Source: Lachnospiraceae bacterium
GTDB lineage: Bacteria; Bacillota; Clostridia; Lachnospirales; Lachnospiraceae
Direction: 5' to 3'
NCBI GenBank assembly: GCA_017958185.1
Contig: JAGDDE010000029.1
Coordinates: 29,972 to 93,971, forward strand
DNA: 64,000 bases
The notes under the pieces were generated by a model that saw only the letters and a list, made by a program, of their open reading frames with translations, ran no database searches and was not told where the DNA came from. Made by a program: the position numbers and the translations under genes. Of the stretch, positions 10,956 through 38,107 are shown piece by piece; the stretch's first letter is position 1, and each line of letters opens with the position of its first letter.

Positions 10956-11130
10956 GTTATTTCCTCCCGGCAGACTTTGTCTACTTGTTCCGACTGCCGG
11001 TTCAAGTATACCTTGTTCCGGCGAAAAAAGCAAGATGGCGTGCTGTAAGAGCACCCTGTTCTGCTCGATTATACTCAAACAGGAGATCCTTGAGAAAGGA
11101 CCTCCTGTTATATACGTTCCTGTGTGAATC

Positions 11131-11910: not shown

Positions 11911-12016
11911 TTTACGTTTTCCTTTCATTAATAGTGCCCAAAGAACAACTTGCACTTCTTTCAATTTCCTATTACCATCAAAAAAAGATACAGAAAACCA
12001 TGATATGTTGGTCTTA

Positions 12017-14189: not shown

Positions 14190-15167
14190 TCACCCTCCGC
14201 TGCCCGGAACGACCCCAGGGAAACTGTTGTTGATAAGCAGATCGCAGCTGATCAGATAGTTGTATACCGCCCGGAACTCCGGCGTGATGCCGCCGACCTG
14301 GGAGACCAGCACGCCCAAACTGCCGTTATACATACCGACATCCACCTGATACGGCACCGGAGGCTCTGTCGCCGCAAGAATGCTCTCCGGAGTCCTGCCG
14401 GAAACGTCAGGATCTACGGAGACCGTTGCGTAAAACTCGGCGACTCCGATCTCATAGCCATTGAAACGTGCCGTAGATAAATTACCGCCCAGAGCCTCCG
14501 CGGGGTAGTAACCCGGTTCTATGACCACACGCACTACCGTGTTGGTATAATCCACGTAAATCAATGCCTGGATGAGATCCCCGTGCTCGTCGTAATAGGC
14601 GTTTCCTGAGACATCCCGGTAGTTTGCTCCCAGATGGTCCGGCTGAAAGTCCGAAAGAACCGTCCGGATATTGGCACCGGTGAGCGGTGTCTGCGACGCA
14701 TAGTTCTCCGCCACGGTGACCCGGGATCCGGCGACCGTGTACAGTTCCTGCAGGATCACGGAATTGCCTGTTCCCTGCGGAGCCGTTCCTTCGACGATCT
14801 TCTTCGGCTCCACGTTTTCGATCTGCGGTGTATTTTCCGGAGAAGGCCTGCGGGCCGGCAGTACCCACGGCAGCAGCACCGCAAGCAGCAGGGCCGCAGC
14901 GGCAGCAACACCGGCCGCCGGCACCCAGATCCTCGGACGGAGGCTCTTCGGCGGCGTCTGTGCCATATACTCTTCTCTCATGCGCAGTCCGCTCTCCAGG
15001 ACATCCTCGTCCAGCTGCGTCAGGATCTCCGCGACCCGCAGGATCTCTCTTTCTTCCTTCATAGGTCCTTCCTTCATCTTTTCTTCACTTTCCGGGCTCT
15101 CCGGGGACCGGCTGCCGGCCATCGCTTCGGCAGCAGACAAAACTTCGGGTTCCGCTTTTCCGTTCAT
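14190..15167 (-). CDS. Putative anti-sigma factor (single-pass membrane protein)
   Basis: The ATG overlaps the sigma-factor stop (ATGA). One TM helix (VPAAGVAAAAALLLAVLLPWVL) separates a short cytoplasmic part from a roughly 220-aa extracytoplasmic part. Confidence 0.6.
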   Translation of the reverse strand: MNGKAEPEVLSAAEAMAGSRSPESPESEEKMKEGPMKEEREILRVAEILTQLDEDVLESGLRMREEYMAQTPPKSLRPRIWVPAAGVAAAAALLLAVLLPWVLPARRPSPENTPQIENVEPKKIVEGTAPQGTGNSVILQELYTVAGSRVTVAENYASQTPLTGANIRTVLSDFQPDHLGANYRDVSGNAYYDEHGDLIQALIYVDYTNTVVRVVIEPGYYPAEALGGNLSTARFNGYEIGVAEFYATVSVDPDVSGRTPESILAATEPPVPYQVDVGMYNGSLGVLVSQVGGITPEFRAVYNYLISCDLLINNSFPGVVPGSGG

Positions 15168-15817
15168 ATGGTGAAGCCCTCCTTCTCCAGGTATTCTTTC
15201 AGATCCTTCCGTATCCGTTCTAACCGCTTATAGACGGCTCGCTGCGACATCTGCATCATCTGCGCGATATCCGGTATGCTGTCTGCGGTATAATATCGGC
15301 TGACGAACAGGAACCGGTCCTCCCGGGATCTGCTCCTGAGAAACGCGCTGATCGCCGCCGCCAGTTCTCTTTCGCGTTCTTCCTCTTCCACGCTCGAGGG
15401 GCCGATCATTTCTTCCGCCTCTTCCAGAGAGACCGTCATTTCCGATCGGATCCGCTTTTTCGTCCGATTCTGCCGTTGGAACAGGTCCAGAGCTTTTCGG
15501 CGGATGATCGTTCCCAAATAGGCTGCGAGACTGTTCGGCCGTTGCGGCGGTATCGTGTTCCACGCCGCCAGATAGGTTTCGTCAAGGCATTCCTCGCTGT
15601 CCTGAGGATCCCGGTCTCCCAGGATGTTCCTGGCCAGAGACAGCAAAAAACGCCGGTACTTGGCATCCGTTTCCCGGATGGCAGCCTCTTCCCTTGCCCA
15701 AAAAAGATCCACGATCTCGCTGTCGGAAAGAGGGCTCTGTTCGTTTTTCAAATCGGGGCCTCCCTTCCTGAAAAGATCCCCGGGGGCGGCCGGCGGAGCG
15801 TCCCCCGCGCTGCGCAT
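15164..15817 (-). CDS. Sigma-70 family (ECF-type) RNA polymerase sigma factor
   Basis: Region 2-like SDSEIVDLFWAREEAAIRETDAKYRRFLLSLARNILGD and region 4 HTH SIPDIAQMMQMSQRAVYKRLERIRKDLK. TTG 15751 (GGGAGG RBS) is an alternative start. Confidence 0.85.
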   Translation of the reverse strand: MRSAGDAPPAAPGDLFRKGGPDLKNEQSPLSDSEIVDLFWAREEAAIRETDAKYRRFLLSLARNILGDRDPQDSEECLDETYLAAWNTIPPQRPNSLAAYLGTIIRRKALDLFQRQNRTKKRIRSEMTVSLEEAEEMIGPSSVEEEERERELAAAISAFLRSRSREDRFLFVSRYYTADSIPDIAQMMQMSQRAVYKRLERIRKDLKEYLEKEGFTI

Positions 15818-16067
15818 TTCCCCTTCACCTATATAGTCTCAAAAATCGGGAAAAATTGAACCTGTACAGACACATTTTCTCAAATAAAAAGAATGGAAAG
15901 TTTTTCTTTGTAATTCTTAATAATCTTAAGTCGCGTCGGGGAAAACAGACCGGTCCCCTCCTCACCGTGAGAAGACCGGCCGGTTTTGGCTCTTTGGTCC
16001 CTCATTTCCCGGCAGTGCGTCCTGCCGGGCAGAGTGATGCAGAGTATCCTTCCGAAGTCACCTGCGC

Positions 16068-16883
16068 TCAGTTCTGCTTGACATGGACATCGATCTGCTG
16101 ATACGGGATCTTGACATTCGCGTCGTTCAGGGCTTCTTTGATCGTCTCCTGAAGCGCAAAGTAGGCGGTCCAGTAGTCGGCGTTTTTGACCCAGGCGCGG
16201 CAGAACAGGTCTACGCTGCTGCCCGAAAGGGCAATGAGTCCGGTGGTCACGGCGGGATCCTGCAGGACCTCCGGGACCTTGGCCGCGGCGGCAAGGATCA
16301 CGTTCTTGGCCTTCTCCACATCGCTCTCATACGAGATAGGGAAAGTCAGATCGACACGGCGCAGTTCCTTTTCCGAATAGTTGATGACAGAACTGGTCGA
16401 CGCGGTGCCGTTGGGCACATAGATCACGCGGTTGTCCACGGTGCGCAGCTTGGTGTTGCACAGGCGGATATCCTCCACCGTACCGGTCTGCCCGGCCACT
16501 TCCACGAAGTCGTCCACGCGGAAGGGACGGGTGATCAGCAGCAGGATGCCGCCGGCGATATTGCCGAGAGCGCCGTTCACGGCCAGGCCGATCGTCACGC
16601 CCAGCGAGGCGATGAGAGCGGTGAATCCGCTCGTATCGATGCCCAGATAGCTGATCAGGCAGATCACGACGAGGACCTTCAGCAGGATCCTGCCGGCATA
16701 GATCAGTGTCCTGGCCAGCGTGGAATCCAGTTTCTTCGTTTCTTCATTCTTCTTCTGGATGAGTTTGCCCAGCCAGTTGATCAGCCGGAAGCTGATGAAC
16801 ATGATCACGGCGGCAATAACGATCTTCAGGCCCGTATTCAGGATCCAGCCCATCACAGTGCTCCAGATTGCTTCCCAATCCAT
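16068..16883 (-). CDS. Mechanosensitive ion channel family protein (MscS-like)
   Basis: ORF trimmed to ATG 16883 (GAAGGAG RBS). Three N-terminal TM helices followed by an MscS beta-domain pattern (RPFRVDDFVEVAGQTGTVEDI). Confidence 0.9.
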   Translation of the reverse strand: MDWEAIWSTVMGWILNTGLKIVIAAVIMFISFRLINWLGKLIQKKNEETKKLDSTLARTLIYAGRILLKVLVVICLISYLGIDTSGFTALIASLGVTIGLAVNGALGNIAGGILLLITRPFRVDDFVEVAGQTGTVEDIRLCNTKLRTVDNRVIYVPNGTASTSSVINYSEKELRRVDLTFPISYESDVEKAKNVILAAAAKVPEVLQDPAVTTGLIALSGSSVDLFCRAWVKNADYWTAYFALQETIKEALNDANVKIPYQQIDVHVKQN

Positions 16884-17009
16884 ATTTCTTGCTCCTTCTC
16901 TTAAAAATCCTCTTTGACCTTTCACGGCCTCACAGTATTATACCACACGAGTCCCGGCCGCGAAAGATAAACTCGAAATAACCTTTCCGCAGGTGCTGCC
17001 GCACCGGCC

Positions 17010-17690
17010 TTATCCGGGCAAACGGCTCGAAAGCAGCGCCAGGTCATACGGCCGGGTCAGTTTTCGGTTTTCCTCCCGCCCGCGCACCAGACGGACCGGA
17101 AGGCCGGCCGCCTCCAGCAGCATGCAGTCATCCGTCATGTCCCGGCGATCCCGGAAACGCTCGTGCAGGCAGCGCAGCGTCTGCGTTTCAAAACACTGCG
17201 GCGTCTGGATGAGCCAGGTATGGGCGCGGTCGGTCGTCTGAAGGACGAGGCCGGCGTCATCTGTGATCTTGACCGTATCCGGCGAAGGCACGGCCAGCGC
17301 AGCGCCCGGCACCGCAGGCATGACGGCCAGCAGCGCGTCGATATCGCTTCGGCTGATCCGGGGCCGCGCGCCGTCGTGGATCATGACCCGTTCTCCCCGG
17401 ACCAGGGCGAGCCCGCGCCGCACCGATCCCTGCCGGGTGTCTCCGCCTGTGATGATCCGGACCGGCTTATCCGAAGGCGAGGCCGAAAGCACCGCCCGGA
17501 TCTCCGCCTCGTCGCCGCTGCGGTATACCAGGATGACCTCGTCCACGGCGGGATGTTCCAGAAAGACCCGCAGGCTGTGCTGCAGCACCGGCTGCCCTTC
17601 CAGCAGCAGGAAGACCTTGTTCTGACCGCAGCCGAAACGCGTGCCGCTCCCGCCTGCCAGCAGGATGACCGAAAGACTTCTTCTTTCCAT
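17010..17690 (-). CDS. ispD: 2-C-methyl-D-erythritol 4-phosphate cytidylyltransferase
   Basis: 226 aa. N-terminal VILLAGGSGTRF nucleotidyltransferase loop and IspD-length fold. Confidence 0.9.
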   Translation of the reverse strand: MERRSLSVILLAGGSGTRFGCGQNKVFLLLEGQPVLQHSLRVFLEHPAVDEVILVYRSGDEAEIRAVLSASPSDKPVRIITGGDTRQGSVRRGLALVRGERVMIHDGARPRISRSDIDALLAVMPAVPGAALAVPSPDTVKITDDAGLVLQTTDRAHTWLIQTPQCFETQTLRCLHERFRDRRDMTDDCMLLEAAGLPVRLVRGREENRKLTRPYDLALLSSRLPG

Positions 17691-17694
17691 GACG

Positions 17695-18552
17695 TCACCT
17701 CACGGGCATATGGTTCAGGAAGTGACAGCGGATGGGCTTAAATCCCTGGCGACGCAGCCGGACCGCCGCCGCTCCCCGCTCCGCCGTATGGCGGAAAAGG
17801 CCGAACACGGCGGAACCGGAGCCCGTCAGACAGGCGGCGCCGGCGCCGGCTTCGCGCAGGGACTGCCGGGCCTCGCCGATCCCGGGGATCGCGGCCACCC
17901 ATTCAAAATCATTGAAGACCGAAGCAAAAACGCCGTCGATGTCGCCGTTTCGCAGCGATTTTTCACAGTAATCCACCCGGCCGTAGTTCCCGTGCAGACC
18001 GCTCCTGTCCAGCGCCGCGTACATGTCCGCCGTCGAAAGGCCCGTCTCCGGCCTGATCAGCAGTACGGGCAGGTCGATCGTATGCGCAATCGGCGTCAGC
18101 TCCGTTCCGATACCGCGCCCGCGGGTCGTTCGGGGAGTCATCAGGGCCGGGACGTCCGCGCCCAGCTGCGCCGCCAGCGACCGCAGCTCCTTTCCGCTGA
18201 GGCCCAGTTCGAACAGCCGGTTCAGACCGCGCAGCATGGCCGCGCCGTCGCTGCTGCCGCCGCCCAGACCCGCCTGCCGGGGGATCCGCTTGGTCAGACG
18301 GGCCCGTACGCCGCAGTCCTGCGGCAGCTGCGCTTCCAGAAGCTTATAGGCCCGGCAGACCAGATTGTCTTCGCCTTCCAGTTCCGGATCCGAACAGGAA
18401 AACTCCAGGCCCGGGGCCTCCGTCTTTTCCAGATCCAGAATGTCCGTCAGCGAAACAGGCTGATAAACGGTGTCGATCTCGTGGTACCCGTCGGGACGCC
18501 TTGCGGGGACCGAAAGACACAGGTTGATCTTAGCAAAAGGATAGATCCTCAT
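17695..18552 (-). CDS. ispE: 4-(cytidine 5'-diphospho)-2-C-methyl-D-erythritol kinase
   Basis: 285 aa. MRIYPFAKINLCL start and GHMP-kinase loop PRQAGLGGGSSDGAA. Confidence 0.9.
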   Translation of the reverse strand: MRIYPFAKINLCLSVPARRPDGYHEIDTVYQPVSLTDILDLEKTEAPGLEFSCSDPELEGEDNLVCRAYKLLEAQLPQDCGVRARLTKRIPRQAGLGGGSSDGAAMLRGLNRLFELGLSGKELRSLAAQLGADVPALMTPRTTRGRGIGTELTPIAHTIDLPVLLIRPETGLSTADMYAALDRSGLHGNYGRVDYCEKSLRNGDIDGVFASVFNDFEWVAAIPGIGEARQSLREAGAGAACLTGSGSAVFGLFRHTAERGAAAVRLRRQGFKPIRCHFLNHMPVR

Positions 18553-18555
18553 CGC

Positions 18556-19023
18556 TTATTCTCCTACTGTCAGAATACAGAATACACTTATGCCTTCTCC
18601 CCGCCCGAAGGCGGTCAGGCCCTCGCCGGTCGTAGCCGTGAGCCCTACGCGGGAAGGATCGATGTTCAAGAGACCGGCTACGGCTGCTTTGATCGCGGGG
18701 ATATGCTCCCAGAGCCTGGGGCGGCTTCCCTCCAGCGTAAAGGAGACGTGCACGATCTTATCCCTCAGGTCGGCCAGCGCCTCCGCCAGATACACCCGGC
18801 TGTCGGTGATCCCCGCCCGGCAGATCCGGTCCGCCGGCGGTCCCAGAATATTCCTTCCGGTGATGCCGGAAACGGCATTCGTGAGCGCGTGCAGCAGCAC
18901 GTCTCCGTCGCTGTTCGCCTCAAACCCCGGCGCGTCGGGGATCACCACGCCGCCGAGCACACATTTTCTGTCCGGATCAGAGGCAAACCGGTGGCTGTCC
19001 TGTCCGATCGAACATCTCGTCAT
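18556..19023 (-). CDS. ispF: 2-C-methyl-D-erythritol 2,4-cyclodiphosphate synthase
   Basis: 155 aa. IGQDSHRF and SDGDVLLHAL motifs. Confidence 0.9.
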   Translation of the reverse strand: MTRCSIGQDSHRFASDPDRKCVLGGVVIPDAPGFEANSDGDVLLHALTNAVSGITGRNILGPPADRICRAGITDSRVYLAEALADLRDKIVHVSFTLEGSRPRLWEHIPAIKAAVAGLLNIDPSRVGLTATTGEGLTAFGRGEGISVFCILTVGE

Positions 19024-19026
19024 ACG

Positions 19027-19836
19027 CTATACCTGATTTCTCCTGTACTCGTTTTTCCAGTTTTCCAGCAGCCGCGCATAGGCGTCGGCCCGCTCTTCCG
19101 GCGGCCGGTCGCGCAGGGCGGCGGCCTCCAGCGCCTTTCCTTCAAACACCGCCTGCCGCTCCCGCTCCGAAAAGCGCCGGCGGAACTTTTCTTCCTGTTC
19201 GGGGGAGATCTCCGCCTTCAGTTCCTCCGGCAGGGTCACGCCCGCCGACAGCTGGCAGAGCGCATAGATCTCTTCCAGGATCTTCTCGTCGTGGAGCAGG
19301 CTGTAGGCGCGGCGGTAACAGCGCATGGCCTCGCGCACCGCCTCCATGCTGGCATAGACGCTGCCCATGTTGTGCCACACCTGCCCGGTGAAGTTGGCAT
19401 CGCCGAGCTTCACGGCGTCCATCGCCAGGATATCCTCATATTCCCGGAGCGCGTAGTGGTACAGCCCCTCTCCGAACAGATAGTCTCCTTTGGCCTTGCG
19501 GCGCTCGGCTTCCGGCATGGCCCGGAGCGTTTCCAGCGTTTTATCGAAGCGGAACAGTTCCGGACTGCTGTAATAGCGGATCTCCTGCAGGATCACGGGC
19601 AGGACTTCGTAGATATCGCCGCCGCGGTATCCGCGCAGACGTTCTTCCAGGCGCGCATAGCCCAGTTCTCCCAGGAACACGAACAGCCGCTCCTCCAGGA
19701 AGTCGTCCGGGATCAGCAGCACATGATTGAAGATGAAATAACTCAGTTCCTCGCCGGTGTAGAGATGGACCCCCAGTTCCGGCACATAATAGGGACTGCG
19801 CACGTTTACTTCCTGACAAAGGATAAGTCCGGCCAT
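19027..19836 (-). CDS. Hypothetical protein, helical/TPR-like
   Basis: 269-aa ORF whose stop lies 3 nt before the ispF start. Helical-repeat composition (..GEGLYHYALREYEDILAM..WHNMGSVYASMEAVREAMRCYRRAY..). Confidence 0.7.
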   Translation of the reverse strand: MAGLILCQEVNVRSPYYVPELGVHLYTGEELSYFIFNHVLLIPDDFLEERLFVFLGELGYARLEERLRGYRGGDIYEVLPVILQEIRYYSSPELFRFDKTLETLRAMPEAERRKAKGDYLFGEGLYHYALREYEDILAMDAVKLGDANFTGQVWHNMGSVYASMEAVREAMRCYRRAYSLLHDEKILEEIYALCQLSAGVTLPEELKAEISPEQEEKFRRRFSERERQAVFEGKALEAAALRDRPPEERADAYARLLENWKNEYRRNQV

Positions 19837-19908
19837 GAAGCCTCCTTTCGGAAAGGCGGGGCCGTCCGGCCCCGGCAGCGATCGGATGCGGGAGAGCGCC
19901 CCGCTCCG

Positions 19909-21255
19909 TCAGGAGATCAGGAAATCTTTGCGGAAACTCAGTCCGCTGGCAGGGAACAGCTCCCCGAAGCCCCGGTCGATGGCGCGCACCGTCACATGGT
20001 TCTCCGACGAGAAGGAAACGATGACCTCGATCCGGGTCGTTTTATTGGGACGGGCGGGCAGTTCGGCCAGAGAAAGACTGATGGTCTCCACCCGCTGCGT
20101 GGCAAACGAGGTGACCAGGATCTCGAGCGTATGCACGTCATCCAGGATGAACAGCGCGGAAGCCTTGGCCTCGTACCAGTTGCTCCCCGCAGAAGCCAGC
20201 GTGAGCGGCTCGTTTTTCCCGCCCCGCACCGCGTAAAGACTGATGGTGGAGGCCAGCCGGCCTTCGCACAGGCAGATGTAGGGGTAATTGGACTGCGGCA
20301 GAGTGCTGTCATAGGCAATGAACGCCGCGCCGTCCGCAAAAAGATGCTGGCCCAGGAAGACCTTGCGCTTATTGCAGAGCTTGCGCACGAACTCCGGCGC
20401 CCAGTCGGCACTCGTGAAGCCTTCGCCGGTCAGATACACCGAGGTGATGACCTTCTTCTGCAGCAGCCGGTCCGCGCAGGCGGACAGGATCGTGTCGGCC
20501 ATTTTTTCGCCCAGCGGCGTATTGAGCAGATCCAGGTCGAAGGCCTCCTCCAGCGCCTCGCGCCGGGCTTCCAGCACCATGGGCCGCCGTCCGCGCAGCA
20601 CCTTCATCTCGTAATAATTCAGCCCGCCGTCGGTCAGATCGAAGGCCGACACCAGGTTCGTGAAGGTGTCCTTGCTCTGGCTGACCGCAAAGTAGGCAAA
20701 ACATTCGGTATGGCTCAAAAACTGCACGCGGCTGCGGGGCAGCCCCAGCCGGTCGCAGACCCGGGTCAGGCGGTCCAGCAGATCGGCATCCAGCTGCTGA
20801 AGGCTGAAGACCACCTCCGCGATCTCGTCCGTCTGGTACTGGCGGCGCGGCAGTTCCAGGACGCGCTCCAGATACAGCGTCAGCAGATCCTCCGCCGAAT
20901 ACAGCACGCCCTCGATCGTGGCCGTGCCGTCGCGCAGCAGCAGCTTGACCAGTTTGTCGACCATGGTCCCCTCGTTCATGAGCGCACGGCGGTAGCCCTC
21001 CGACCCGATCAGCCAGCGGTCGCTTCCGCGCAGTTTGCAGAGCACCGTCGGGATCAGGCAGGAAGTCTCGTCCGCGCCCAGAAGGACCGGCTCCACCGCC
21101 ATTTTTTCTGCAGAAAAACAGCTGACCTGGCTGTACGAATCGCAGATATCCACGCCTAAAATAAGTCCGCTCACCGTTTTTCCTTCCTTCCGTATCGTCA
21201 CGTCAGGGACCGATCCCCCGCGGCTCCTGTGCCGGCTGCGGGCGGTCCCGGTCAT
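19909..21255 (-). CDS. Hsp70/actin-fold ATPase-like protein of unknown function
   Basis: GVDICDSYSQV, FDLTDGGLNYYEM, VYLTGEGFTS and FADGAAFIAY resemble DnaK phosphate-1, phosphate-2 and adenosine motifs. ATG 21255 (AGGAG RBS, 11 nt after the upstream stop); GTG 21174 is an alternative start. Confidence 0.75.
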   Translation of the reverse strand: MTGTARSRHRSRGGSVPDVTIRKEGKTVSGLILGVDICDSYSQVSCFSAEKMAVEPVLLGADETSCLIPTVLCKLRGSDRWLIGSEGYRRALMNEGTMVDKLVKLLLRDGTATIEGVLYSAEDLLTLYLERVLELPRRQYQTDEIAEVVFSLQQLDADLLDRLTRVCDRLGLPRSRVQFLSHTECFAYFAVSQSKDTFTNLVSAFDLTDGGLNYYEMKVLRGRRPMVLEARREALEEAFDLDLLNTPLGEKMADTILSACADRLLQKKVITSVYLTGEGFTSADWAPEFVRKLCNKRKVFLGQHLFADGAAFIAYDSTLPQSNYPYICLCEGRLASTISLYAVRGGKNEPLTLASAGSNWYEAKASALFILDDVHTLEILVTSFATQRVETISLSLAELPARPNKTTRIEVIVSFSSENHVTVRAIDRGFGELFPASGLSFRKDFLIS

Positions 21256-21266
21256 GCCCGCTCCTG

Positions 21267-24200
21267 TCAGAGCAGGTCGAAATAATTCTTCAGTATCACA
21301 TCTTCCCGGCCGTAGGCCAGGACTTTTTCCTGCCAGGCCGGATCGTCGAAACCGCCCGCCTCCGCGATGAGTTCATTCAGTTTGCGGAAACGGTTGCGGT
21401 GGGCTGCCGGCTGCCGGTCCGGGACTGCCGTGCCTTCTGCCAGCGTCCGGCGGGTCTCTCCTTCGCCGGTAAAGATCTCATATTCCGCCCGCTCGCCCGC
21501 AAACAGCAGCAGGGAGCGCACATACACGCCGCGGTAGATCTGCGGCATTTCCGTGCGGACCGGCTCTTTGTCCTCTTGTTCGGGCAGGATGCGCAGATCG
21601 ATCTGCACACCTCCTTCTTCGCTGCCGCGGTATTCGATCAGCGTGCGGTCGGCCAGCTCGGCCGGCAGCTGGATGAAGCGGCCCAGCTTCAGCTGATACG
21701 CAAAGCGGAGCCCCTGCCGGCAAAGGCAGTCCACCATGGCCTGCGCCAGGGCATGCTCCTGCTCGTTGAGTTCGCTCTGTTCCGAAAATACGCTCGTCAG
21801 GGCCATCTGGCCGACCAGCGGCAGGTTTTCCGGCTTCCTTTCGGTCAGCGCCCAGGTCTTCAGATAATCCACGTCCCGGGCCGTCAGGGCGATCTCCCCG
21901 CGGAAATACCGGTCGCTCTGGACGATCTCATAGGCATCCTGCAGCAGTTTGTCCGGCCGTTCGGTGTTTTCCAGATACAGGCGGCAGACCCATTCCAGGT
22001 CTTTCGTATCTCCGCTGAAGAGCATCTGGCCCAGCAGCCGCTCCGGCATATCGTAGACCAGGCCGCGCCGCTCGCTGCAGCGCCGCAGGACGGCGCGCAT
22101 CTCCTCCGAACTGCCGTTGAAGAAGCGGCAGAGCTCCGTGAGCGTGACCGCGTTGTCCCAGCCCTGCCGGTACAGATACAGCGCGGCCGTAAAGATCCGC
22201 TCCTCGTATTCGTAATGCATGGTCCGGATGCTGCGGGTCACGAAGGTGCCGAGCAGTTCCGGGTCCACGCGGCGCAGATCGCAGGCGCGCAGCATCTTCA
22301 GGGCGCTTTCCCGGTCATCCAGGCGCACCGCGCCGGAAAACAGCACGCCGGCGGCCGTCTCGTCGCGTTCATCGGTCATGCACCGGCGCAGCAGCACCGT
22401 GGCCGAGGGGTCGCCGCTTTCCATGACCGCCACCGCCTTCTGCAGCAGCGCGTTGCGGCAGCCGCTCTCCAGGCGGTCCCAGCCCAGGCAGCGGCCCAGA
22501 GCCGGATAATCCTGCGGTCCGACCTGCTTTTCGCTCAGCCGGCGCACTTCGCGCAGGCGCACGCCTTCTTTGTCCGGGCAATAGCGGACGCAGGCATCGG
22601 CCAGCGCTTCGGTCTGCCGCATGAGCGGCGCATGTTTCTCGCGCACCCGGCTCCAGCGCAAACCGCGGGCGTCCTCAAAGAGCACGCGGCAGTCCTTCGT
22701 GTAGCAGGGGACCATCGCCCGGCCGTTTTCCACCGGATACAGTTCCTCCGCTTTCAGCTCCGGATACAGGACCGCCACCCGGCGGATATCCGAACCCTCA
22801 AAGCGGTACTGCTGCATATACAGCATATCGTACAGAAGGCCGGCCGTTTTTTCCTCCAGCACTTCGGGGATGAACATGCGCTCATAAAGGCCGGCCATCT
22901 CTTCGCCGGCCTCGCCGGCCAGCAGCTGCTCCAGCGCATAGCTCTGCATCTGCTTCTCATACAGCCGGTATACATGGCTCTCCGGCGGGAAGAAGCGGAG
23001 GATGTTCGCGTAGAGCGCGCGCCTGGCCTCGGGAAGTTCCGGACTGTTGTAGGAAAAATACAGCAGCACGAACTTGGGCAGCGGTTTTTCCTGCTCCTTC
23101 GGGAGCGTGCAGAGATAGTATTCGTACAGTCTGGTCAGCCGGATATCCTCGTCCAGGCCTTCGGCGTACCAGTGATGATATTCGGGACGGAGTTTTTCGC
23201 TGCCGATGAGGAGCCGCAGGATCGCCTCCAGGATACGCCGGTCCGGATACGACGCATACAGGCCCGCCAGGATCCGGTAATAGCTCGGATGCCAGCCCTC
23301 CCGGTTCTCCACCCAGTGGGCGGCCGTCCGGGCCATTTCCTGCGTCCAGGCGCCGAAGCGCGCGCCGAACAGCAGGATCCGCCGCTCAAAGGCATCGCCT
23401 TCCCGCAGCAGTTCGGGATGCTCGTTGTAAATATGGCAGGCTTCCAGCTTGAGCATGGGGTCCATCAGGCCCTCCGCCTCGAAGGCGCGGATCTTCCGGA
23501 TGGCCTCCGCGGGCGAGGGCTGTTCCAGCTCGTCCATGCGCAGCCCCAGCAGGAAGGACATGGGATCGTCCAGCCCTTCCTCGCGGAAGCGCGCCAGCAG
23601 CCGGCCGACGCCGGCCACGCTGTCCCGGCTGGTCCCCAGAAGCGCCTCCAGATACAGATACCACAGATAAACGGAAGGCTCCCTGCTGCGGCTGCGCTGG
23701 GCTTCCACGCGCAGTTCGGCCAGCAGCGCCCGCTCCTCCGCACGGCGTTCCATACGGGCCAGGAGCACCGCTTTCAAGACCTTCATGGACAGATTCGGCT
23801 CACCGAAGGCAGTGCAGGCATCCCAGGCATCAGCCAACTCCTGCGCAAGGGCGGCGGGACGGTCCGAGGTAAAGACCCGGATCACGGTCCTGTCAAAATG
23901 CAGCAGGGCCGCGCGGGCGTTGCGGGCCTCTTCGCGTTCTTTCTGCTCATCGCCCGCTTCCGGCCACACTTCCAGCGGCACGGTATACCGCGCGAAGCCG
24001 GCATCCAGGATGACCGCGCCCAGGTTCTTTCCGGCATGCAGCCGCCGGCGCGAGAAGAGGACCGGCAGCCGGCATTCATCGCCGATAAAATCGGCATCGG
24101 AAAGACTGTCGGCCGGCACCCGCAGGAAGTCGCCCTCCGTGGCCAGCTGAATGCTCAGAAAACCGGGACGGTCGCGGCGGATCACGATCTCCGCACGGTC

Positions 24201-24824
24201 CTCGCCCGCTTTCAGGCGGTAACGGTGCACCGTCTCGTCCACCGTGAGCCGTACGCGCTTTTGCAGTCCGGCAGCGGTCATGAATTCGTCCAGACCCTGC
24301 CGGCTGCTGCGGGAACGGCGCAGACCGTCCGCGAGCAGGCGCAGTCTGGCATCGCCTGCCACCGGCGCCAGATTGCGGAACAGCGGCGAATCAAAGCAGC
24401 GCGCCAGCGCCTCGGGATCTTTCTGATACAGGGCCAGCAGTTCCCCGCGGTCGGCGGGCATCTCTTCGCGGGCCAGCACGGCCTGCCGCACGGAAAAGCG
24501 GTACGGGACCGTGAATTCTCCGCCGGTGGTCACAAAGGAAAACGCGCCGGAAAGCTCCGCCGGTTCGCGCAGGCGCTCGCTGTGGACGATATAAATGACC
24601 TCCGTCTCGAGCCCGCCGAACTGGCTGTCGGCGATCTCGATCCGCTCGTCGTCCGCGTACCAGACCCCCCGGAAAGACAGCCGGTTCCGGCTCTCCAGAC
24701 GGAAACTGCCGCGGTAGATCTGCCCGCAGGTGACCGTATCGCGGACTTCTGCGGGGGTTATCTCTATATGGGGCTGTGTCTGATCGACAAAGCCTTTGGC
24801 CAGTCTGGCAACCTTCTTCTTCAC
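21267..24824 (-). CDS. Very large (1185 aa) helical-repeat protein of unknown function
   Basis: Uninterrupted ORF with GTG start 10 nt after the rarA stop (AAGAGGTG RBS). Beta-rich roughly 110-aa N-terminus, then more than 1000 aa of L/R/E-rich helical repeats. No catalytic motif recognised. Confidence 0.8.
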   Translation of the reverse strand: MKKKVARLAKGFVDQTQPHIEITPAEVRDTVTCGQIYRGSFRLESRNRLSFRGVWYADDERIEIADSQFGGLETEVIYIVHSERLREPAELSGAFSFVTTGGEFTVPYRFSVRQAVLAREEMPADRGELLALYQKDPEALARCFDSPLFRNLAPVAGDARLRLLADGLRRSRSSRQGLDEFMTAAGLQKRVRLTVDETVHRYRLKAGEDRAEIVIRRDRPGFLSIQLATEGDFLRVPADSLSDADFIGDECRLPVLFSRRRLHAGKNLGAVILDAGFARYTVPLEVWPEAGDEQKEREEARNARAALLHFDRTVIRVFTSDRPAALAQELADAWDACTAFGEPNLSMKVLKAVLLARMERRAEERALLAELRVEAQRSRSREPSVYLWYLYLEALLGTSRDSVAGVGRLLARFREEGLDDPMSFLLGLRMDELEQPSPAEAIRKIRAFEAEGLMDPMLKLEACHIYNEHPELLREGDAFERRILLFGARFGAWTQEMARTAAHWVENREGWHPSYYRILAGLYASYPDRRILEAILRLLIGSEKLRPEYHHWYAEGLDEDIRLTRLYEYYLCTLPKEQEKPLPKFVLLYFSYNSPELPEARRALYANILRFFPPESHVYRLYEKQMQSYALEQLLAGEAGEEMAGLYERMFIPEVLEEKTAGLLYDMLYMQQYRFEGSDIRRVAVLYPELKAEELYPVENGRAMVPCYTKDCRVLFEDARGLRWSRVREKHAPLMRQTEALADACVRYCPDKEGVRLREVRRLSEKQVGPQDYPALGRCLGWDRLESGCRNALLQKAVAVMESGDPSATVLLRRCMTDERDETAAGVLFSGAVRLDDRESALKMLRACDLRRVDPELLGTFVTRSIRTMHYEYEERIFTAALYLYRQGWDNAVTLTELCRFFNGSSEEMRAVLRRCSERRGLVYDMPERLLGQMLFSGDTKDLEWVCRLYLENTERPDKLLQDAYEIVQSDRYFRGEIALTARDVDYLKTWALTERKPENLPLVGQMALTSVFSEQSELNEQEHALAQAMVDCLCRQGLRFAYQLKLGRFIQLPAELADRTLIEYRGSEEGGVQIDLRILPEQEDKEPVRTEMPQIYRGVYVRSLLLFAGERAEYEIFTGEGETRRTLAEGTAVPDRQPAAHRNRFRKLNELIAEAGGFDDPAWQEKVLAYGREDVILKNYFDLL

Positions 24825-24834
24825 GGGACACCTC

Positions 24835-26154
24835 TTACTCCAGCGTTTTCAGCCAATCCAGATAACGTTTGATGTCTTTCTCATATCCGTTGTCTCCCGG
24901 TTCAAAGAACCGGGCGTCTTTCACTTCGTTCGGCAGGTACTGCTGCTTCACGTAATGTCCCGGGAAATCGTGCGCATACCGGTACGCCGGTTTTTCGCCT
25001 TCTCCCGCCGACATGGCGTGAATGTTCATCAGATGCAGCGGCACCGTCTCCACTTCCACGTTCTCCACAGCGGATGCGGCCCGTTCCAGCGCCATATACG
25101 AAGCGTTGCTTTTGGGCGCGGTCGCGATGTAGACGGCGGCCTCCGCGAGCGGGATGCGTCCTTCCGGCATGCCCACACGTTCCACGGTCTCCGCCGCTGC
25201 CACGGCCACAAGGAGCGCCCGGGGGTCGGCCATGCCCACGTCCTCCGCCGCGCAGATCATGATGCGCCGCGCGATGAATCTGGGATCCTCTCCGGCGCGG
25301 ATCATGCGGGCCAGATAGTAGACGGCCGCGTCCGGATCGGAGCCGCGCATGCTCTTGATGAAGGCGGAGATCACGTCATAATGCCCGTCGCCGCCCTTAT
25401 CGTAGCGGATGCTCCGCTTCTGGATGCACTCCTCCGCCACGGCCAGGGTGAGGTGAATCTTCCCGTCGGCCGAGGGTTCCGTAGTCAGAAGGCCCAGTTC
25501 CACGGCATTGAGGGCGCGGCGGGCATCGCCGCCGGCCATATCGGCCAGAAAAGCGGCTGCTTCGTCCGTGATCACGCCCCCGTAGATCCCCATGCCGCGT
25601 TCCTTATCTTCCACCGCCCGGTGGATGAGTTTCAGCACGTCGCCCCTGCCTAGCGGCTTCAGTTCAAAAATATTTGACCGTGAAAGCAGCGCTTTGTTCA
25701 CTTCAAAATACGGATTCTCCGTCGTGGCGCCGATCAGCACCACCGTTCCGTCTTCCACAAAGGGGAGCAAATAATCCTGCTGGGCTTTATTGAAACGGTG
25801 GATCTCGTCGATGAACAAAATGGTGCGCCGTCCGTACGCCGCCCGCAGGCGCTTTGCCTCCTCTACGACGGTTTCCATTTCCTTCTTGCCGGAGGTGGTC
25901 GCGTTGATCTGGCAGAACGCCGCCTTCGTGGTCGCGGCGATCACCGAGGCCAGCGTGGTCTTCCCCGTGCCGGGCGGCCCGTAAAAGATCAGCGAGGACA
26001 GCCGGTCCGCCCGGATCGCCCGGTAGAGCAGTTTGTCCTGCGAAAGGATATGCTCCTGCCCCACGATCTCTTCCAGCGATCGCGGACGCATGCGCAGCGC
26101 CAGCGGCGCCTCCTTCTCCTTTGCCTGTTCATTCATGTATTCAAAAAGATCCAT
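24835..26154 (-). CDS. rarA: Replication-associated recombination protein A (AAA+ ATPase)
   Basis: Trimmed to ATG 26154. Walker A GPPGTGKTT, Walker B LFIDEIHRF, and a MgsA C-terminal region (..HLMNIHA..YRYAHDFPGHYV). Confidence 0.9.
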   Translation of the reverse strand: MDLFEYMNEQAKEKEAPLALRMRPRSLEEIVGQEHILSQDKLLYRAIRADRLSSLIFYGPPGTGKTTLASVIAATTKAAFCQINATTSGKKEMETVVEEAKRLRAAYGRRTILFIDEIHRFNKAQQDYLLPFVEDGTVVLIGATTENPYFEVNKALLSRSNIFELKPLGRGDVLKLIHRAVEDKERGMGIYGGVITDEAAAFLADMAGGDARRALNAVELGLLTTEPSADGKIHLTLAVAEECIQKRSIRYDKGGDGHYDVISAFIKSMRGSDPDAAVYYLARMIRAGEDPRFIARRIMICAAEDVGMADPRALLVAVAAAETVERVGMPEGRIPLAEAAVYIATAPKSNASYMALERAASAVENVEVETVPLHLMNIHAMSAGEGEKPAYRYAHDFPGHYVKQQYLPNEVKDARFFEPGDNGYEKDIKRYLDWLKTLE

Positions 26155-26552
26155 GACTGATCCCAACCTTCTGATCCCGCAGAGCTCGAAAAGCCGTGCG
26201 ACATTTTTCCTCTTAACACTATAGCACAAAAACCGCGCCGGGGGAAGAGCGAAAGAGGAAAAAGCACGCACTGGCGGAGGCGCAGGGAAAGCGGGCCTTA
26301 AGAATCGAAAGCAAAAACATCCAACTACAAAATTTTCGAAGTTTTTACAAAAACCTGTCCAAAATCCATCTTATTTACGACTATATACTCGGAGTTTCCG
26401 ATTACACGTTTGCTCAAAACTATGTCAAGCAGTATCTGCGCTGAGAAATCGCCATAAGCTGACCTGAAGGGCTTGTTTGAGGCTGTTCTTTGACAGTTTC
26501 CTGCCCGATAAGTCATGAACGGTCCTTTTAGTTTTCTCCTCCCATACCTTAC

Positions 26553-34367: not shown

Positions 34368-34467
34368 GATCAGTTTCCTCTTTACTTTTTCCTTGAAAAA
34401 TGCTATGGTTAAGAGCAGGGTCGCATGGCCCGGCCGGAGGGAGATTTCCCCCTCGGAACATGATCCC

Positions 34468-34567: not shown

Positions 34568-34627
34568 GTTGTAACACCAAAATATGACACCGATTTTTAG
34601 GGCATAATTGCCTTGAAAATATGAAAT

Positions 34628-34699: not shown

Positions 34700-34708
34700 T
34701 TTTCGAAA

Positions 34709-38105: not shown

Positions 38106-38107
38106 AA

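Follow-up and report, generated by a model that had tools for sequence, protein, structure and literature searches.

Organization of the locus

The window (the whole stretch of DNA analyzed, 64,000 nucleotides) carries on its minus strand a co-directional array of ~9.3 kb (17010-26271) that runs from rarA to ispD and includes three genes that we call A, B and C (Table 1). The rarA stop codon (24835-24837) is followed 10 nt later by the GTG start codon of gene A at 24824, and the gene A TGA stop codon is followed 11 nt later by ATG 21255, which has AGGAG ahead of it and opens the 448-aa ORF of gene B. Genes B and C are spaced 72 nt apart, an interval containing a AAAGGAGG RBS, and the gaps between gene C and ispF, ispF and ispE, and ispE and ispD are 3, 3 and 4 nt, respectively. 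The three ORFs and spacing given in a preliminary description of this DNA were thus reproduced, and the four peptide motifs that it quoted were all found in the 448-aa protein. The sole strong terminator-like hairpin on the minus strand lies at 15948-15981, and the GC content of the trio equals that of its flanks.

Because gene B homologs are 420-421 aa long and lack the first 27 residues of the 448-aa ORF, and because a GTG at 21174 with GGAAGGAAGG ahead of it yields exactly 421 aa, the true start of gene B is probably GTG 21174, in which case the A-B gap is 92 nt. Homologs of rarA align from residue ~36-40, and its true start is probably near residue 39.

Table 1. Genes and predicted domains of the array and its surroundings, in the direction of transcription
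Feature	Coordinates	Strand	Basis or remark
rarA/mgsA AAA+ gene (context)	24835..26271	minus	directly upstream; Pfam MgsA_C E 1.9e-68
Gene A (DUF5717 protein)	21267..24824	minus	1185-aa ORF, GTG start
A, res. 20-113, first ASH/PapD-like beta-sandwich	24486..24767	minus	DSSP strands, Foldseek
A, res. 193-288, second ASH/PapD-like beta-sandwich	23961..24248	minus	DSSP, Foldseek
A, res. 292-668, first TPR-like alpha-solenoid	22821..23951	minus	~20 helices in DSSP
A, res. 670-733, inserted beta domain	22626..22817	minus	DSSP
A, res. 739-1049, second alpha-solenoid	21678..22610	minus	DSSP
A, res. 1061-1181, C-terminal beta-sandwich (1061-1133), two helices and tail	21282..21644	minus	DSSP
Gene B (DUF5716 protein)	19909..21255	minus	448-aa ORF from ATG 21255
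B, res. 1-295 (421-aa numbering), reduced Hsp70-type NBD	20290..21174	minus	profile alignment, Foldseek, secondary-structure order, motifs
B, res. 299-421, SBD-beta-like nine-strand domain	19912..20280	minus	Foldseek, DSSP; no alpha-helical lid after it
Gene C (p269)	19027..19836	minus	269-aa ORF, own AAAGGAGG RBS
C, res. 1-100, most conserved part	19537..19836	minus	invariant columns
C, res. ~105-215, TPR domain, ~three repeats	19192..19524	minus	family profile vs PDB
ispF-ispE-ispD, MEP pathway (context)	17010..19023	minus	directly downstream; NCBIfam TIGR00151, TIGR00154, TIGR00453 above cut-off
ispF	18556-19023	minus	
ispE	17695-18552	minus	
ispD	17010-17690	minus	
MscS	16068-16925		follows the array

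A, B and C travel together

All 87 sampled loci (80 plus 7 more distant) had A, B and C adjacent and in one order, each with a gene C ortholog directly after gene B, so that the neighborhood survey called for earlier found the trio together without exception in related genomes of Lachnospiraceae, gut bacteria. Among the 80 loci the A-B gap had a median of 21.5 nt, and the B stop and C start codons overlapped by 4 nt in the ATGA manner in 46; the three genes are often translationally coupled. One MAG has A and B joined as a single 1626-aa ORF. The preliminary description regarded the trio as wired to rarA and the isp genes, but the flanks vary by lineage: rarA was directly upstream and co-directional in only ~22/80 loci and ispF/ispE downstream in only ~17/80, whereas in more distant lineages the trio adjoins DUF4364, valS, purB/purA or infC-rpmI-rplT. 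To judge from gene order, the rarA and isp neighbors represent lineage-specific synteny rather than functional partners. The lineage-specific flanks (clpP-clpX-lon-engB/valS-folC, purBA, infC-rpmI-rplT) are housekeeping genes, and in some lineages a fourth gene encodes a coiled-coil/two-TM membrane protein.

At least 454 species genomes contain the trio, uniform in length and gene order, a pattern that in these genomes is vertical and core-like. Five records labeled "Bacteriophage sp." contain a homolog, but we take these matches to be bacterial DNA and not genuine phage; the best of them, an UNVERIFIED entry, has rarA and valS along with the trio, at 72% identity, and is therefore bacterial chromosome.

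The DUF5716 and DUF5717 labels suggested in the preliminary description were recovered by Pfam search, with gene A matching DUF5717_N (PF18984, E 2.5e-171) and DUF5717 (PF18983, E 1.1e-49) and gene B matching DUF5716_C (PF18980, E 3.3e-90). No characterized family claimed A, B or C in profile searches, and a literature search found no paper discussing the DUF5716/DUF5717 trio. The trio appears to be unstudied.

Gene B has a predicted Hsp70 fold

The AF2 model of gene B (pLDDT 92.6, pTM 0.89) gave Foldseek matches of which the best 50 were all Hsp70s with NBD and SBD (E 1.4e-19 to 6e-15), including DnaK, BiP and Hsc70 (E ~1e-19), the Hsp110 Sse1 (2qxl, 3d2e, 3c7n) and the ribosome-associated complex (RAC) protein Ssz1 with bound pseudo-substrate (6sr6, 7x3k). 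The alignments covered entire 500-540-residue NBD plus SBD-beta targets, as in the 511 columns shared by the 421-aa query and the 509-aa target 4ani_C. By its predicted structure, gene B is a true Hsp70-fold protein, as had been proposed, with an NBD and a substrate-binding beta-domain and without the helical lid. The preliminary description had denied it a DnaK-type substrate-binding domain, but its C-terminal beta module aligns with Hsp70 SBD-beta, and the lid alone is absent. This module carries a LPARPNKTTRIEV...DKGFG signature and a conserved tail, IR[KR]DF[LY]I; residues 366-404 gave a sub-threshold profile alignment to "IPPAPRGIPQIEVTFDID...DKGTG" (DnaK 430-468), and the domain searched alone by sequence had no significant match to SBD-beta. 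In the NBD, residues 6-124 align by profile to Mycobacterium tuberculosis DnaK 5-117. Compared with DnaK, gene B lacks the lid and ~90 NBD residues, probably those of subdomain IIB, while keeping the SBD-beta-like module. Sequence similarity is slight: identity to DnaK is 11-16%, hhalign gave a 5.5% probability with an approximate DnaK query sequence, and there was no Pfam HSP70 match at E<=10.

The family alignment showed conservation of D9, H155, E157, L-T-G-x-G-F and G-A-A. The phosphate-1 loop reads G-x-D-x-C-D-[DS], and that of phosphate-2 is D-L-[TS]-[ED]-x-G; both depart from all canonical Hsp70s, with conserved C-D-D and T-E-x-G standing where those have Gly/Thr phosphate-binding loops. 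The column aligned to DnaK K70 is hydrophobic, although K74 is K/R in 134/138 sequences. Nucleotide binding is uncertain from the sequence because the phosphate loops deviate and the K70 column is hydrophobic. The T-G-x-G adenosine loop and the acidic positions D9, E157 and D179 are retained, but the phosphate loops are altered, and the ATPase activity proposed earlier is unproven because those loops are noncanonical.

Gene A resembles a scaffold and gene C carries a TPR domain

Clustering at 50% identity divides the gene A family into 2467 clusters, and its members are ~1175-1200 aa long. Whereas a beta-rich N terminus of ~110 aa followed by >1000 aa of helical repeats had been described, its AF2 model (pLDDT 90.0, pTM 0.70) has, by DSSP, four beta domains interleaved with two alpha-solenoids; the Pfam DUF5717 C-terminal model spans residues 875-1182. 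Foldseek found no global structural relative. At the N terminus, tandem ASH/Ig domains (7sqc, 9ijj, CEP192 SPD-2 9fh8, 2qsv; E 6e-6 to 1e-3) were matched locally over ~280-300 columns, and TMt was 0.71 to HYDIN PapD-like 2e6j and 0.57 to OCRL1 ASH 3qbt. The first solenoid weakly matched (E ~3e-3) TPR/HAT scaffold subunits, namely, SKI complex 7qdr_B, Naa15 5nnp, Paf1C 7xn7_q and spliceosome 8ro2_I. Within the second beta-sandwich lie a conserved HxGxNxG motif (263-269) and the invariant residues G221, F246, G265 and N267. Like B and C, A ends in a conserved tail, ...[ED]ELFP-L, in which F1182 is invariant. On the model, gene A looks like a scaffold-like mosaic of two ASH/PapD-like sandwiches, two TPR-like solenoids and two further beta domains, and its earlier reading as a scaffold gains support from this architecture and the Foldseek matches.

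The TPR-like character noted earlier for gene C was confirmed by three comparisons. The family profile matched consensus TPR proteins in PDB at E 7e-18 and SPINDLY, TOM70, HOP/STI1, CHIP and FKBP51 at E 1e-8 to 1e-5; Pfam TPR_2 was matched by 33/50 orthologs, the window's own protein falling below the Pfam TPR cut-off; and hhalign to the CHIP TPR gave a probability of 81%. The TPR clamp is conserved only in part: the second clamp Asn is Asp, and the fourth position is E in the window protein. All invariant columns (P15, E30, L31, Y33, F46, L51, F54) fall within residues 1-100, a region with no Pfam match at E<=10 and no detectable relatives. These comparisons identify gene C as a three-repeat TPR protein of the Hsp70/Hsp90 co-chaperone type with a unique N-terminal domain.

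A candidate complex and its alternatives

We propose, with what we judge to be a roughly even chance of being right, that A-B-C is the three-gene operon core for one cytosolic, housekeeping, Lachnospiraceae-specific complex, dedicated to handling protein, around a highly divergent minimal Hsp70. A would be the platform on which the three proteins come together in fixed stoichiometry, and B may be held in the complex, or act on it, by clasping a linear stretch of a partner in its SBD-beta groove, much as the lidless RAC Hsp70 Ssz1 binds its zuotin pseudo-substrate. The TPR groove of C may capture a conserved tail, either ...IRKDFLIS of B or ...ELFPL of A, neither of which resembles EEVD. Given its retained acidic residues and adenosine loop, B would probably still bind nucleotide, and because of its altered phosphate loops and likely missing subdomain IIB it would hydrolyze slowly or not at all and be free of GrpE-type regulation. 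B would then work as a clamp that senses nucleotide, not as a rapidly cycling foldase. Counting against the proposal are the nonsignificant sequence match of the SBD-beta-like domain, the deviating phosphate loops, the incomplete TPR clamp, the dissimilarity of both tails to EEVD and the absence of J-domain and NEF genes from the operon. More speculatively, the complex could be an assembly or quality-control platform for a client, tethered to the membrane in some lineages by the fourth protein.

It is unlikely, if worth weighing, that the trio is instead a dedicated, actively cycling chaperone, in which B is an ATP-driven Hsp70 with A or A-borne cargo as client and C as co-chaperone or specificity factor, on the model of HscA-HscB-IscU, where the Hsp70 paralog is dedicated to one client. 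B's Hsp70 fold (AF2, Foldseek and profile alignment), its catalytic acidic positions D9, E157 and D179 and basic K74, an SBD-beta-like domain that implies peptide binding, and strict co-occurrence with the very large A, which may need folding help, all fit this reading. However, no lineage has a J-domain protein in or beside the module, B lacks the lid that slows substrate release and ~90 NBD residues and has acidic residues where canonical phosphate loops have Gly/Thr, and B-C translational coupling suggests a fixed stoichiometry rather than a catalytic chaperone:client ratio.

It is improbable that B is an Hsp110-like DnaK accessory for nucleotide exchange or disaggregation, pairing NBD to NBD and targeted by A and C: Hsp110-Hsp70 pairing depends heavily on subdomain IIB contacts, and that subdomain appears to be deleted in B. 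The Sse1 fold matches favor such a role, as does a 2026 review (PMC13580251) in which shortened or missing lids are documented for many DnaK derivatives of bacteria and an Hsp110-like mode of action, NBD to NBD with DnaK, is proposed for them; B, however, is far more divergent from DnaK than those paralogs, and its obligate synteny partners are A and C, with dnaK, dnaJ and grpE never adjacent.

Defense islands commonly hold multigene cassettes of NTPase, TPR and large repeat proteins, and the trio, which relocates between lineages as a unit and has homologs in the five "phage" records, could be read as such a conflict system or as mobile-element cargo. This is very improbable: no PADLOC model matched A, B or C, none of 72,556 plasmids carried the trio, the best "phage" record is chromosomal, and the housekeeping flanks in every lineage, the matching GC content and the core-like distribution all argue against it.

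Equally remote is the cytoskeleton-like machine once suggested, with B as an actin-like filament former of the ParM/MreB/FtsA type and A and C as regulators or anchors, since the ASKHA fold common to actins, the membrane coiled-coil fourth gene and a phmmer match of B 52-120 to the ParM hybrid protein 4xhp (E 0.0024), which spans only ~70 residues and is gone with the family profile, are set against 50 best fold matches that are all Hsp70-family chaperones and include no ParM, MreB, FtsA or actin and an SBD-beta-like domain specific to Hsp70s.

Conservation of the trio and variation of its neighbors

The genes encoding a 1185-aa DUF5717 protein (gene A), a DUF5716 protein (gene B), and a 269-aa protein termed p269 (gene C), together called the trio, lie on the minus strand of the window. 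When the junctions were read directly, the gaps from rarA through A, B, C, ispF, and ispE to ispD were found to be 10, 11, 72, 3, 3, and 4 nt, in agreement with the spacings (10 nt, 11 nt, and 3 to 4 nt) in the preliminary description, and the AGGAG ribosome-binding site reported ahead of the ATG at 21255, which opens a 448-aa form of gene B, is present. Gene C is preceded by AAAGGAGG. About 150 homologs of gene B are 420 to 421 aa long and lack the Arg-rich first 27 residues of the 448-aa ORF; a GTG at 21174, with GGAAGGAAGG ahead of it, yields a protein of exactly 421 aa, and gene B residues are numbered here by that form. A scan for promoters and terminators found a promoter-like site upstream of rarA, a sole strong terminator-like hairpin on the minus strand, 3' of an MscS-type channel gene, and no convincing internal promoter or terminator; as sequence features, the positions of the hairpin and the promoter-like site are compatible with one long transcript. 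No RNA elements were found in or near the trio in an Rfam scan, and the GC content of the trio (0.62 to 0.65) equals that of its flanks. As listed, the rarA ORF encodes 478 aa from a GTG start and has an N-terminal extension; because homologs and NCBIfam models begin to align only at about residues 36 to 40, translation probably starts at the Met of "MDLFEYM" (~26157).

Locations of the trio, its neighbors, the predicted domains of the gene A product, the fourth gene of distant loci, and other features of the window
Feature	Location	Strand	Basis
rarA	24835-26271	-	ORF
Gene A, 1185-aa ORF, GTG start	21267-24824	-	ORF and Pfam
Gene B, 448-aa ORF	19909-21255	-	ORF and Pfam
Gene C, 269-aa ORF	19027-19836	-	ORF
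ispF	18556-19023	-	ORF and profile match
ispE	17695-18552	-	ORF and profile match
ispD	17010-17690	-	ORF and profile match
MscS-type channel gene	16068-16925	-	ORF
Terminator-like hairpin	15948-15981	-	Promoter/terminator scan
Gene A, N-terminal helix	before residue 20		Model
Gene A, beta-sandwich	residues 20-113		Model
Gene A, helical linker	residues 126-184		Model
Gene A, beta-sandwich	residues 193-288		Model
Gene A, alpha-solenoid	residues 292-668		Model
Gene A, beta domain	residues 670-733		Model
Gene A, alpha-solenoid	residues 739-1049		Model
Gene A, beta-sandwich	residues 1061-1133		Model
Gene A, two C-terminal helices	after residue 1133		Model
Fourth gene, distant locus L081	L081:11578-12747		
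Fourth gene, distant locus L084	L084:11495-12586		
Fourth gene, distant locus L085	L085:11002-12180		
Fourth gene, distant locus L088	L088:8454-9626		
tRNA-Arg(CCT)	34627-34700		
pemK RNA motif	35308-35398		Rfam RF02913, 62 bits
ATPase_2/DUF234 gene	36292-37734		
AAA_14/DUF4143 gene	38423-39781		
Subtilase-family S8 peptidase gene	12017-13735		
DUF2807 "adhesin head GIN domain" gene	10005-11207		
ECF-type sigma factor gene	15164-15817		Sigma70_r2

When one genome per species was scanned, relatives of gene B turned up in at least 454 genomes, nearly all of them Lachnospiraceae and including Enterocloster, Hungatella, Clostridium porci, and Fusibacillus; the named members of more distant clusters also belong to Lachnospiraceae or Clostridiales. 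By tblastn, the order and strand of A-B-C were identical in all 80 relative loci that we fetched (L001 to L080), and the arrangement is also kept in seven more distant loci, reached via DUF5717 representatives or a mislabeled virome contig, where the third gene belongs to the p269 family (E values of 1e-41 to 1e-94). Thus, the co-occurrence survey suggested in the preliminary description found the three genes together at every one of these 80 and seven loci. The stop codon of B and the start codon of C overlap by 4 nt in 46 of the 80 loci, and the median A-B gap is 21.5 nt; on this evidence, the overlap and the short gap indicate that the genes would be translationally coupled, as for subunits of one complex. 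In one metagenome-assembled genome (MAG) (JAJQDL010000070.1; L011:6386-11266), a single in-frame ORF of 1626 aa runs across DUF5717 and DUF5716. This ORF, found in a single MAG, may be a natural fusion, which would favor a physical A-B interaction, or it may reflect a lost stop codon or an assembly error.

The surroundings of the trio are far from constant. rarA lies directly upstream and co-directional in only ~22 of the 80 loci, and ispF/ispE lies downstream in only ~17. Both are missing from Enterocloster/Hungatella-type loci, which have other housekeeping genes instead (in Enterocloster-type loci, clpP-clpX-lon-engB-DUF4364 upstream and GNAT-valS-folC downstream), and purB/purA, aroK, and infC-rpmI-rplT are found beside the trio elsewhere; every sampled context places it next to housekeeping genes. 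Because the neighbors vary among lineages, we attribute the adjacency to rarA and the MEP-pathway genes, earlier read as "wiring," to lineage synteny and reject a functional link. The unit conserved over hundreds of gut species is the trio and not its rarA/isp context, which had not been recognized. Neither a J-domain gene nor a GrpE gene was found in or beside the trio in any sampled lineage, and no dnaK was found in the window or the loci.

Of the loci L032 to L080, 41 have a DUF4364 gene directly upstream of the trio (e.g., L054:5634-6179, minus strand); the gene is absent from the 64-kb window. It encodes a protein of ~175 aa with 67 to 100% identity across species, which could be a regulator, and is usually divergent from the trio (co-directional in L065, L069, L070, L075, and L076).

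Directly 3' of gene C, half of the distant loci sampled (4/8) carry a fourth co-directional gene. Its products (363 to 392 aa, 28 to 37% identical to each other, with a family hidden Markov model [HMM] E value of 2e-80 for the L088 copy) match no Pfam family and have coiled coils flanking two hydrophobic, transmembrane-like segments. Neither the window nor L001 to L080 shows a detectable copy of the gene, even by HMM; its product may anchor the trio module to the membrane in particular lineages.

Five INPHARED records labeled "Bacteriophage sp." (MT835486.1 and four others), all UNVERIFIED human-faecal virome contigs, carry a homolog. Because the best of them, 72% identical to Lachnospiraceae, contains rarA, the trio, and valS, we read these records, by their gene content, as bacterial chromosomal DNA and not phage genomes, and caution is warranted in taking them as phage references.

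Family assignment

Gene A matches Pfam DUF5717_N and DUF5717 (PF18984 and PF18983) with end-to-end coverage of both models, at E values of 2.5e-171 and 1.1e-49 (572 and 169.8 bits, with a gathering cutoff of 25 for each), and gene B matches the full DUF5716_C model (PF18980) at an E value of 3.3e-90 (302.5 bits against a cutoff of 34.7). The labels DUF5716 and DUF5717 given in the preliminary description are therefore correct. The window copy of gene C gave only subthreshold TPR matches in Pfam (21.7 bits against a 27-bit cutoff), and no NCBIfam model exists for A, B, or C. A protein 100% identical to the source MAG's gene product is annotated as hypothetical. A name search found no literature discussing DUF5716 or DUF5717, and the families themselves are already cataloged as domains of unknown function.

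Gene B is predicted to be a lidless Hsp70

The AlphaFold2 model of gene B, built from a 70-sequence alignment, has a pLDDT of 92.6 and a pTM of 0.89. When it was compared with the PDB by Foldseek, the best 50 matches were all Hsp70-family structures (E values of 1.4e-19 to 6e-15, 11 to 16% identity, TMq up to 0.65), including DnaK, BiP, Hsc70, mortalin, Ssb, the Hsp110 protein Sse1, and Ssz1 of the eukaryotic ribosome-associated complex (RAC), so the Hsp70 fold first proposed from motifs is upheld. Furthermore, each of these 50 targets is a construct in which the nucleotide-binding domain (NBD) is accompanied by the substrate-binding beta-domain (SBD-beta), and the alignments run over 503 to 551 columns. 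Against the 509-residue Geobacillus DnaK 4ani_C, the 421 residues of gene B align over 511 columns, the whole query spanning nearly the whole NBD-plus-SBD-beta target with ~90 target-only positions. When the family profile was searched against PDB sequences, residues 6 to 124 aligned with residues 5 to 117 of Mycobacterium tuberculosis DnaK (E value of 0.035), and residues 366 to 404 (LPARPNKTTRIEVIVSF...VRVxDKGFG) aligned below threshold with DnaK residues 430 to 468 (IPPAPRGIPQIEVTFDID...VTAKDKGTG), a stretch that we take to be the classic SBD-beta signature; the shared pattern is P-A-R-P-x-x-x-x-x-I-E-V...D-K-G-x-G. In the model, the last helix ends by residue 289, nine beta-strands follow past residue 299, and the protein stops at residue 421, right after the last strand (413 to 419). 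From the span of the Foldseek alignments, the profile alignments, and the helix-free, nine-strand C terminus, we conclude that gene B is modeled as an Hsp70 NBD followed by an SBD-beta, with no alpha-helical lid. The earlier statement that it has no DnaK-type substrate-binding domain was mistaken, as SBD-beta is seen at the fold level.

The C-terminal module searched alone gave no Hsp70 match among PDB sequences, and we therefore do not claim SBD-beta homology from sequence alone. Pfam reported only DUF5716_C for gene B, with no match to HSP70 (PF00012), actin, MreB, or FtsA even at an E value of ≤10, and hhalign of the DUF5716 profile against a provisional Escherichia coli DnaK sequence, run as a consistency check, aligned only the N-terminal 130 residues, with a probability of 5.5%. 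Because these searches returned little or nothing, the kinship of gene B with Hsp70, as modeled, is visible essentially at the fold level only. Its NBD is also short, at ~295 residues versus ~380, and a single long helix (220 to 238) lies between the IIA strands; from this order of secondary-structure elements, we infer that subdomain IIB, on which nucleotide-exchange factors act, is probably missing for the most part.

The nucleotide site was compared across 70 and then 138 family members. Gene B retains, as in DnaK, the strand-1 Asp (D9), H155 and E157 at the position of the N-E-P-T-A-A helix (the E-x-x-A motif), D179-L180 at phosphate-2, the L-T-G-x-G-F adenosine loop with its shared T-G-x-G, and F-x-x-G-A-A with its shared G-A-A. 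The Gly/Thr phosphate loops that define Hsp70 have given way to conserved, acidic, noncanonical sequences: phosphate-1 reads G-[IV]-D-[LI]-C-D-[DS]-Y-S-Q in place of G-I-D-L-G-T-T-N-S, and phosphate-2 reads F-D-L-[TS]-[ED]-x-G-L in place of D-L-G-G-G-T-F-D, so that C-D-D and T-E-x-G stand against the canonical G-T-T and G-G-G. The catalytic K70 of DnaK aligns with a hydrophobic column (V76), whose neighbors are K74 (K in 121 and R in 13 of 138, i.e., K/R in 134) and K77 (K in 89 of 138). To judge from these residues, ATP binding is plausible, but hydrolysis and GrpE-type regulation are doubtful, and gene B is at most a putative ATPase.

Four cysteines of gene B (C46, C233, C267, and C303) are at least 97% conserved among 138 distinct family members; they could form a Zn or Fe-S site, act as a redox switch, or simply serve packing. 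A fifth cysteine, C11, lies in the phosphate-1 loop and is present in 84% of the 138.

Compared with a canonical Hsp70, then, gene B resembles it in the succession of an ASKHA NBD and a beta-sandwich SBD (Foldseek E value of 1e-19) but has 421 aa instead of ~610 to 640, no lid, ~90 fewer NBD residues (probably IIB), four near-invariant cysteines, and no dnaJ or grpE partner in its operon. On the model, it belongs to the Hsp70 superfamily at the fold level and departs from canonical Hsp70s in the lid, the phosphate loops, the HSP70 sequence match, and J/NEF partners. Recognition of DUF5716 as a two-domain, lidless, probably IIB-less Hsp70, as modeled here, is new.

A close likeness is Ssz1/HspA14 of RAC (6sr6 and 7x3k), a lidless, atypical Hsp70 that is a permanent complex subunit and whose SBD-beta holds a "pseudosubstrate" segment of its partner zuotin; Ssz1 structures stand at ranks 31, 39, and 44 of the gene B fold matches. 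Zuotin is a J-domain protein, whereas Pfam detects no J-domain in A or C, and the NBD of Ssz1 is full-size, unlike that of gene B. We regard the resemblance as functional analogy, not orthology. The absence of a lid from Ssz1 is documented, and bacterial DnaK derivatives with short or missing lids or SBDs are a recognized, largely uncharacterized class (PMC13580251). DnaK paralogs of bacteria (HscA, HscC, YegD, and the Myxococcus "derivates") are recognizable as HSP70 by sequence, whereas DUF5716 is not; YegD lacks any SBD, whereas DUF5716 has SBD-beta; and none of these paralogs is known to have an obligatory TPR partner together with an ASH/solenoid partner of 1185 aa.

Gene C encodes a TPR protein with a putative, partial carboxylate clamp

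A profile of 50 gene C orthologs matched consensus TPR proteins in the PDB over residues ~105 to 215 (E value of 7e-18) and, among natural proteins, HOP/STI1, CHIP, FKBP51, TOM70, and SPINDLY (E values of 1e-8 to 1e-5). Pfam TPR_2 is matched by 33 of the 50 orthologs (best E value of 7e-10), and the family profile thus confirms the TPR-like character first suspected from the single sequence. Gene C shares with the TPR cochaperones of Hsp70/Hsp90 (CHIP, HOP/STI1, FKBP51, and TOM70) a three-repeat TPR, here encoded beside an Hsp70-like gene. Aligned with the CHIP TPR (residues 22 to 104 of a provisional CHIP sequence; hhalign probability of 81%, E value of 1.2e-5), it agrees with the CHIP-type clamp at K114, for clamp K30 (K/R in 47 of 50, 94%), and at N156, for N65 (N in 34 of 50, 68%). 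It differs at N34, which is replaced by the near-invariant D118 (D in 47 of 50), and clamp K95 corresponds to position 188, which is K/R in 35 of 50 and E in the window protein. As aligned, the clamp is partial; the TPR matches are generic, and clamp-type binding is putative. Conserved C-terminal tails occur in all three proteins (IRKDFLIS in B, ELFPL.. in A, and WK.EYR.M in C), and those of the potential partners A and B are not EEVD. Unlike TPR cochaperones, gene C has its own, more conserved N-terminal domain of 100 residues, which holds most of the invariant columns and for which no relatives were detectable in Pfam at an E value of ≤10.

Gene A has the look of a mosaic interaction platform

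An exhaustive representative search placed 2467 clusters (at 50% identity) in the DUF5717 family at an E value of ≤1e-3, 1000 of them at ≤1e-30, with uniform lengths of ~1175 to 1200 aa. The model of gene A, from 96 diverse sequences, has a pLDDT of 90.0 and a pTM of 0.70. The preliminary description, in which a beta-rich N terminus precedes helical repeats of >1000 aa, was only roughly right; in the model, beta domains interleave two solenoids (see the table). No global structural relative was found by Foldseek in the PDB (TMq ≤ 0.14), and the order beta-beta-solenoid-beta-solenoid-beta occurs in no entry returned. Locally, the tandem N-terminal sandwiches match ASH/PapD-like immunoglobulin domains (E values of 6e-6 to 5e-3), including those of ciliary central-apparatus proteins, CEP192 SPD-2, and Porphyromonas gingivalis 2qsv; against single-domain targets, TMt reaches 0.57 for the OCRL1 ASH domain and 0.71 for a HYDIN PapD-like domain. 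The solenoids weakly match TPR/HAT scaffolds (Ski3-type 7qdr_B, Naa15, Ctr9, and spliceosomal HAT proteins such as SYF1; E values of ~3e-3). Because Pfam finds no sequence-level ASH, PapD, or DUF1573 match in gene A, ASH/PapD-like membership of the modeled N terminus is asserted at the fold level only. A search against PDB sequences returned nothing significant, and no catalytic motif or sequence-level domain was detectable. Gene A, a bacterial and predicted cytosolic product with no evident signal peptide, looks on its model like a protein-protein interaction platform. TRAPP subunits combine TPR and ASH domains.

In the ciliary C1 central-pair apparatus of Chlamydomonas, the Hsp70 chain (7sqc_Z0) is also matched by the gene B model, and the gene A model finds its best matches in ASH-domain chains from these same assemblies (7sqc, 7n6g, and 9ijj). 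Because ASH domains abound in the ciliary central pair, this is probably a coincidence and only a loose analogy. It nevertheless supplies a precedent for Hsp70 as a structural subunit beside ASH-domain scaffolds, since HSP70A belongs stably to the CPC1/C1b complex (bioRxiv 10.1101/2021.06.16.448709).

A proposed A-B-C complex and its alternatives

We propose, with the chances for and against about equal in our judgment, that A, B, and C assemble into one cytosolic complex, with A as the platform that bears the mini-Hsp70 (B) and the TPR adaptor (C). B would be fixed to the complex, or act on it, through its SBD-beta gripping a linear segment of a partner, as in the Ssz1-zuotin pair of RAC, and would work as a slow, nucleotide-sensing clamp and not as a fast foldase, while the TPR groove of C would read one of the conserved C-terminal tails. 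Such a complex might serve to assemble, or to control the quality of, some structure specific to Lachnospiraceae, perhaps at the membrane in lineages that have the fourth protein.

Gene B might instead be an actively cycling chaperone dedicated to protein A, in the manner of HscA, an Hsp70 paralog dedicated to one client system; we consider this reading possible, though unlikely. An Hsp110-like helper of DnaK, a role proposed for DnaK derivatives in a 2026 review (PMC13580251), is improbable, since IIB seems to have been lost and dnaK is not linked to the trio. That gene B forms actin-like filaments, in line with the cytoskeleton-like option first entertained, seems very improbable: a 70-residue phmmer match to ParM (E value of 0.0024) disappeared with the family profile, and neither ParM nor MreB nor FtsA is among the 50 best fold matches. 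Just as improbable is a defense or mobile system, which we rejected since A, B, and C match no PADLOC-DB v2 model, no plasmid copy of the trio was found, and the "phage" contigs, on inspection of the best, are bacterial.

The single A-B-C complex admits a bolder version that we put forward tentatively and think rather doubtful, namely, a self-contained bacterial Hsp70-TPR-scaffold machine with a tail-reading TPR and a lidless, IIB-less Hsp70 as a nucleotide- or redox-gated clamp on the platform. The TPR groove would bind the conserved C-terminal tail of the minimal Hsp70 or of the platform, the four near-invariant cysteines of B may bind metal or sense redox, and the ASH/solenoid platform would organize a cytoplasmic or membrane-associated structure in Lachnospiraceae. 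To our knowledge, TPR-tail coupling has until now been seen as characteristic of eukaryotes (HOP/CHIP with EEVD).

The family Lachnospiraceae ranks with the most abundant in the human and animal gut, and the trio, present in at least 454 Lachnospiraceae species genomes at a cost of ~1,900 codons, encodes proteins without a name, structure, or phenotype. That DUF5716 is obligatorily coupled to both a TPR protein and an ASH/solenoid platform with no structural relative is likewise new. Gene B would rank among the smallest natural proteins with both Hsp70 domains, a natural experiment in which parts of Hsp70 allostery are dispensable. Its obligate pairing with a TPR protein in bacteria bears on the origin of TPR-Hsp70 cochaperone partnerships, and gene A extends to bacteria a set of domain types familiar chiefly from the cilia, centrosomes, and trafficking complexes of eukaryotes. 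The confident models and strict synteny open the trio to direct tests in hosts that can be cultivated, among them Enterocloster, Hungatella hathewayi, and Clostridium porci.

Other features of the window

Two low-GC stretches lie elsewhere in the window. In the region from 34000 to 40000, the GC content falls to 0.45 to 0.53 (versus ~0.61) after a tRNA-Arg(CCT) gene; this stretch contains a pemK RNA motif and two AAA-type genes and looks, from these features, like an element integrated at the tRNA gene. The stretch from 10005 to 13735 (GC content of 0.43 to 0.51) may be of horizontal origin and codes for an S8 peptidase of the subtilase family, a DUF2807 protein, and a 311-aa ORF without a Pfam match. 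Finally, an ECF-type sigma factor gene and a Pfam-less 325-aa ORF with a central hydrophobic segment share a 4-nt overlap (14190 to 15817); the two genes, just downstream of the array's terminator, are a probable sigma/anti-sigma pair.
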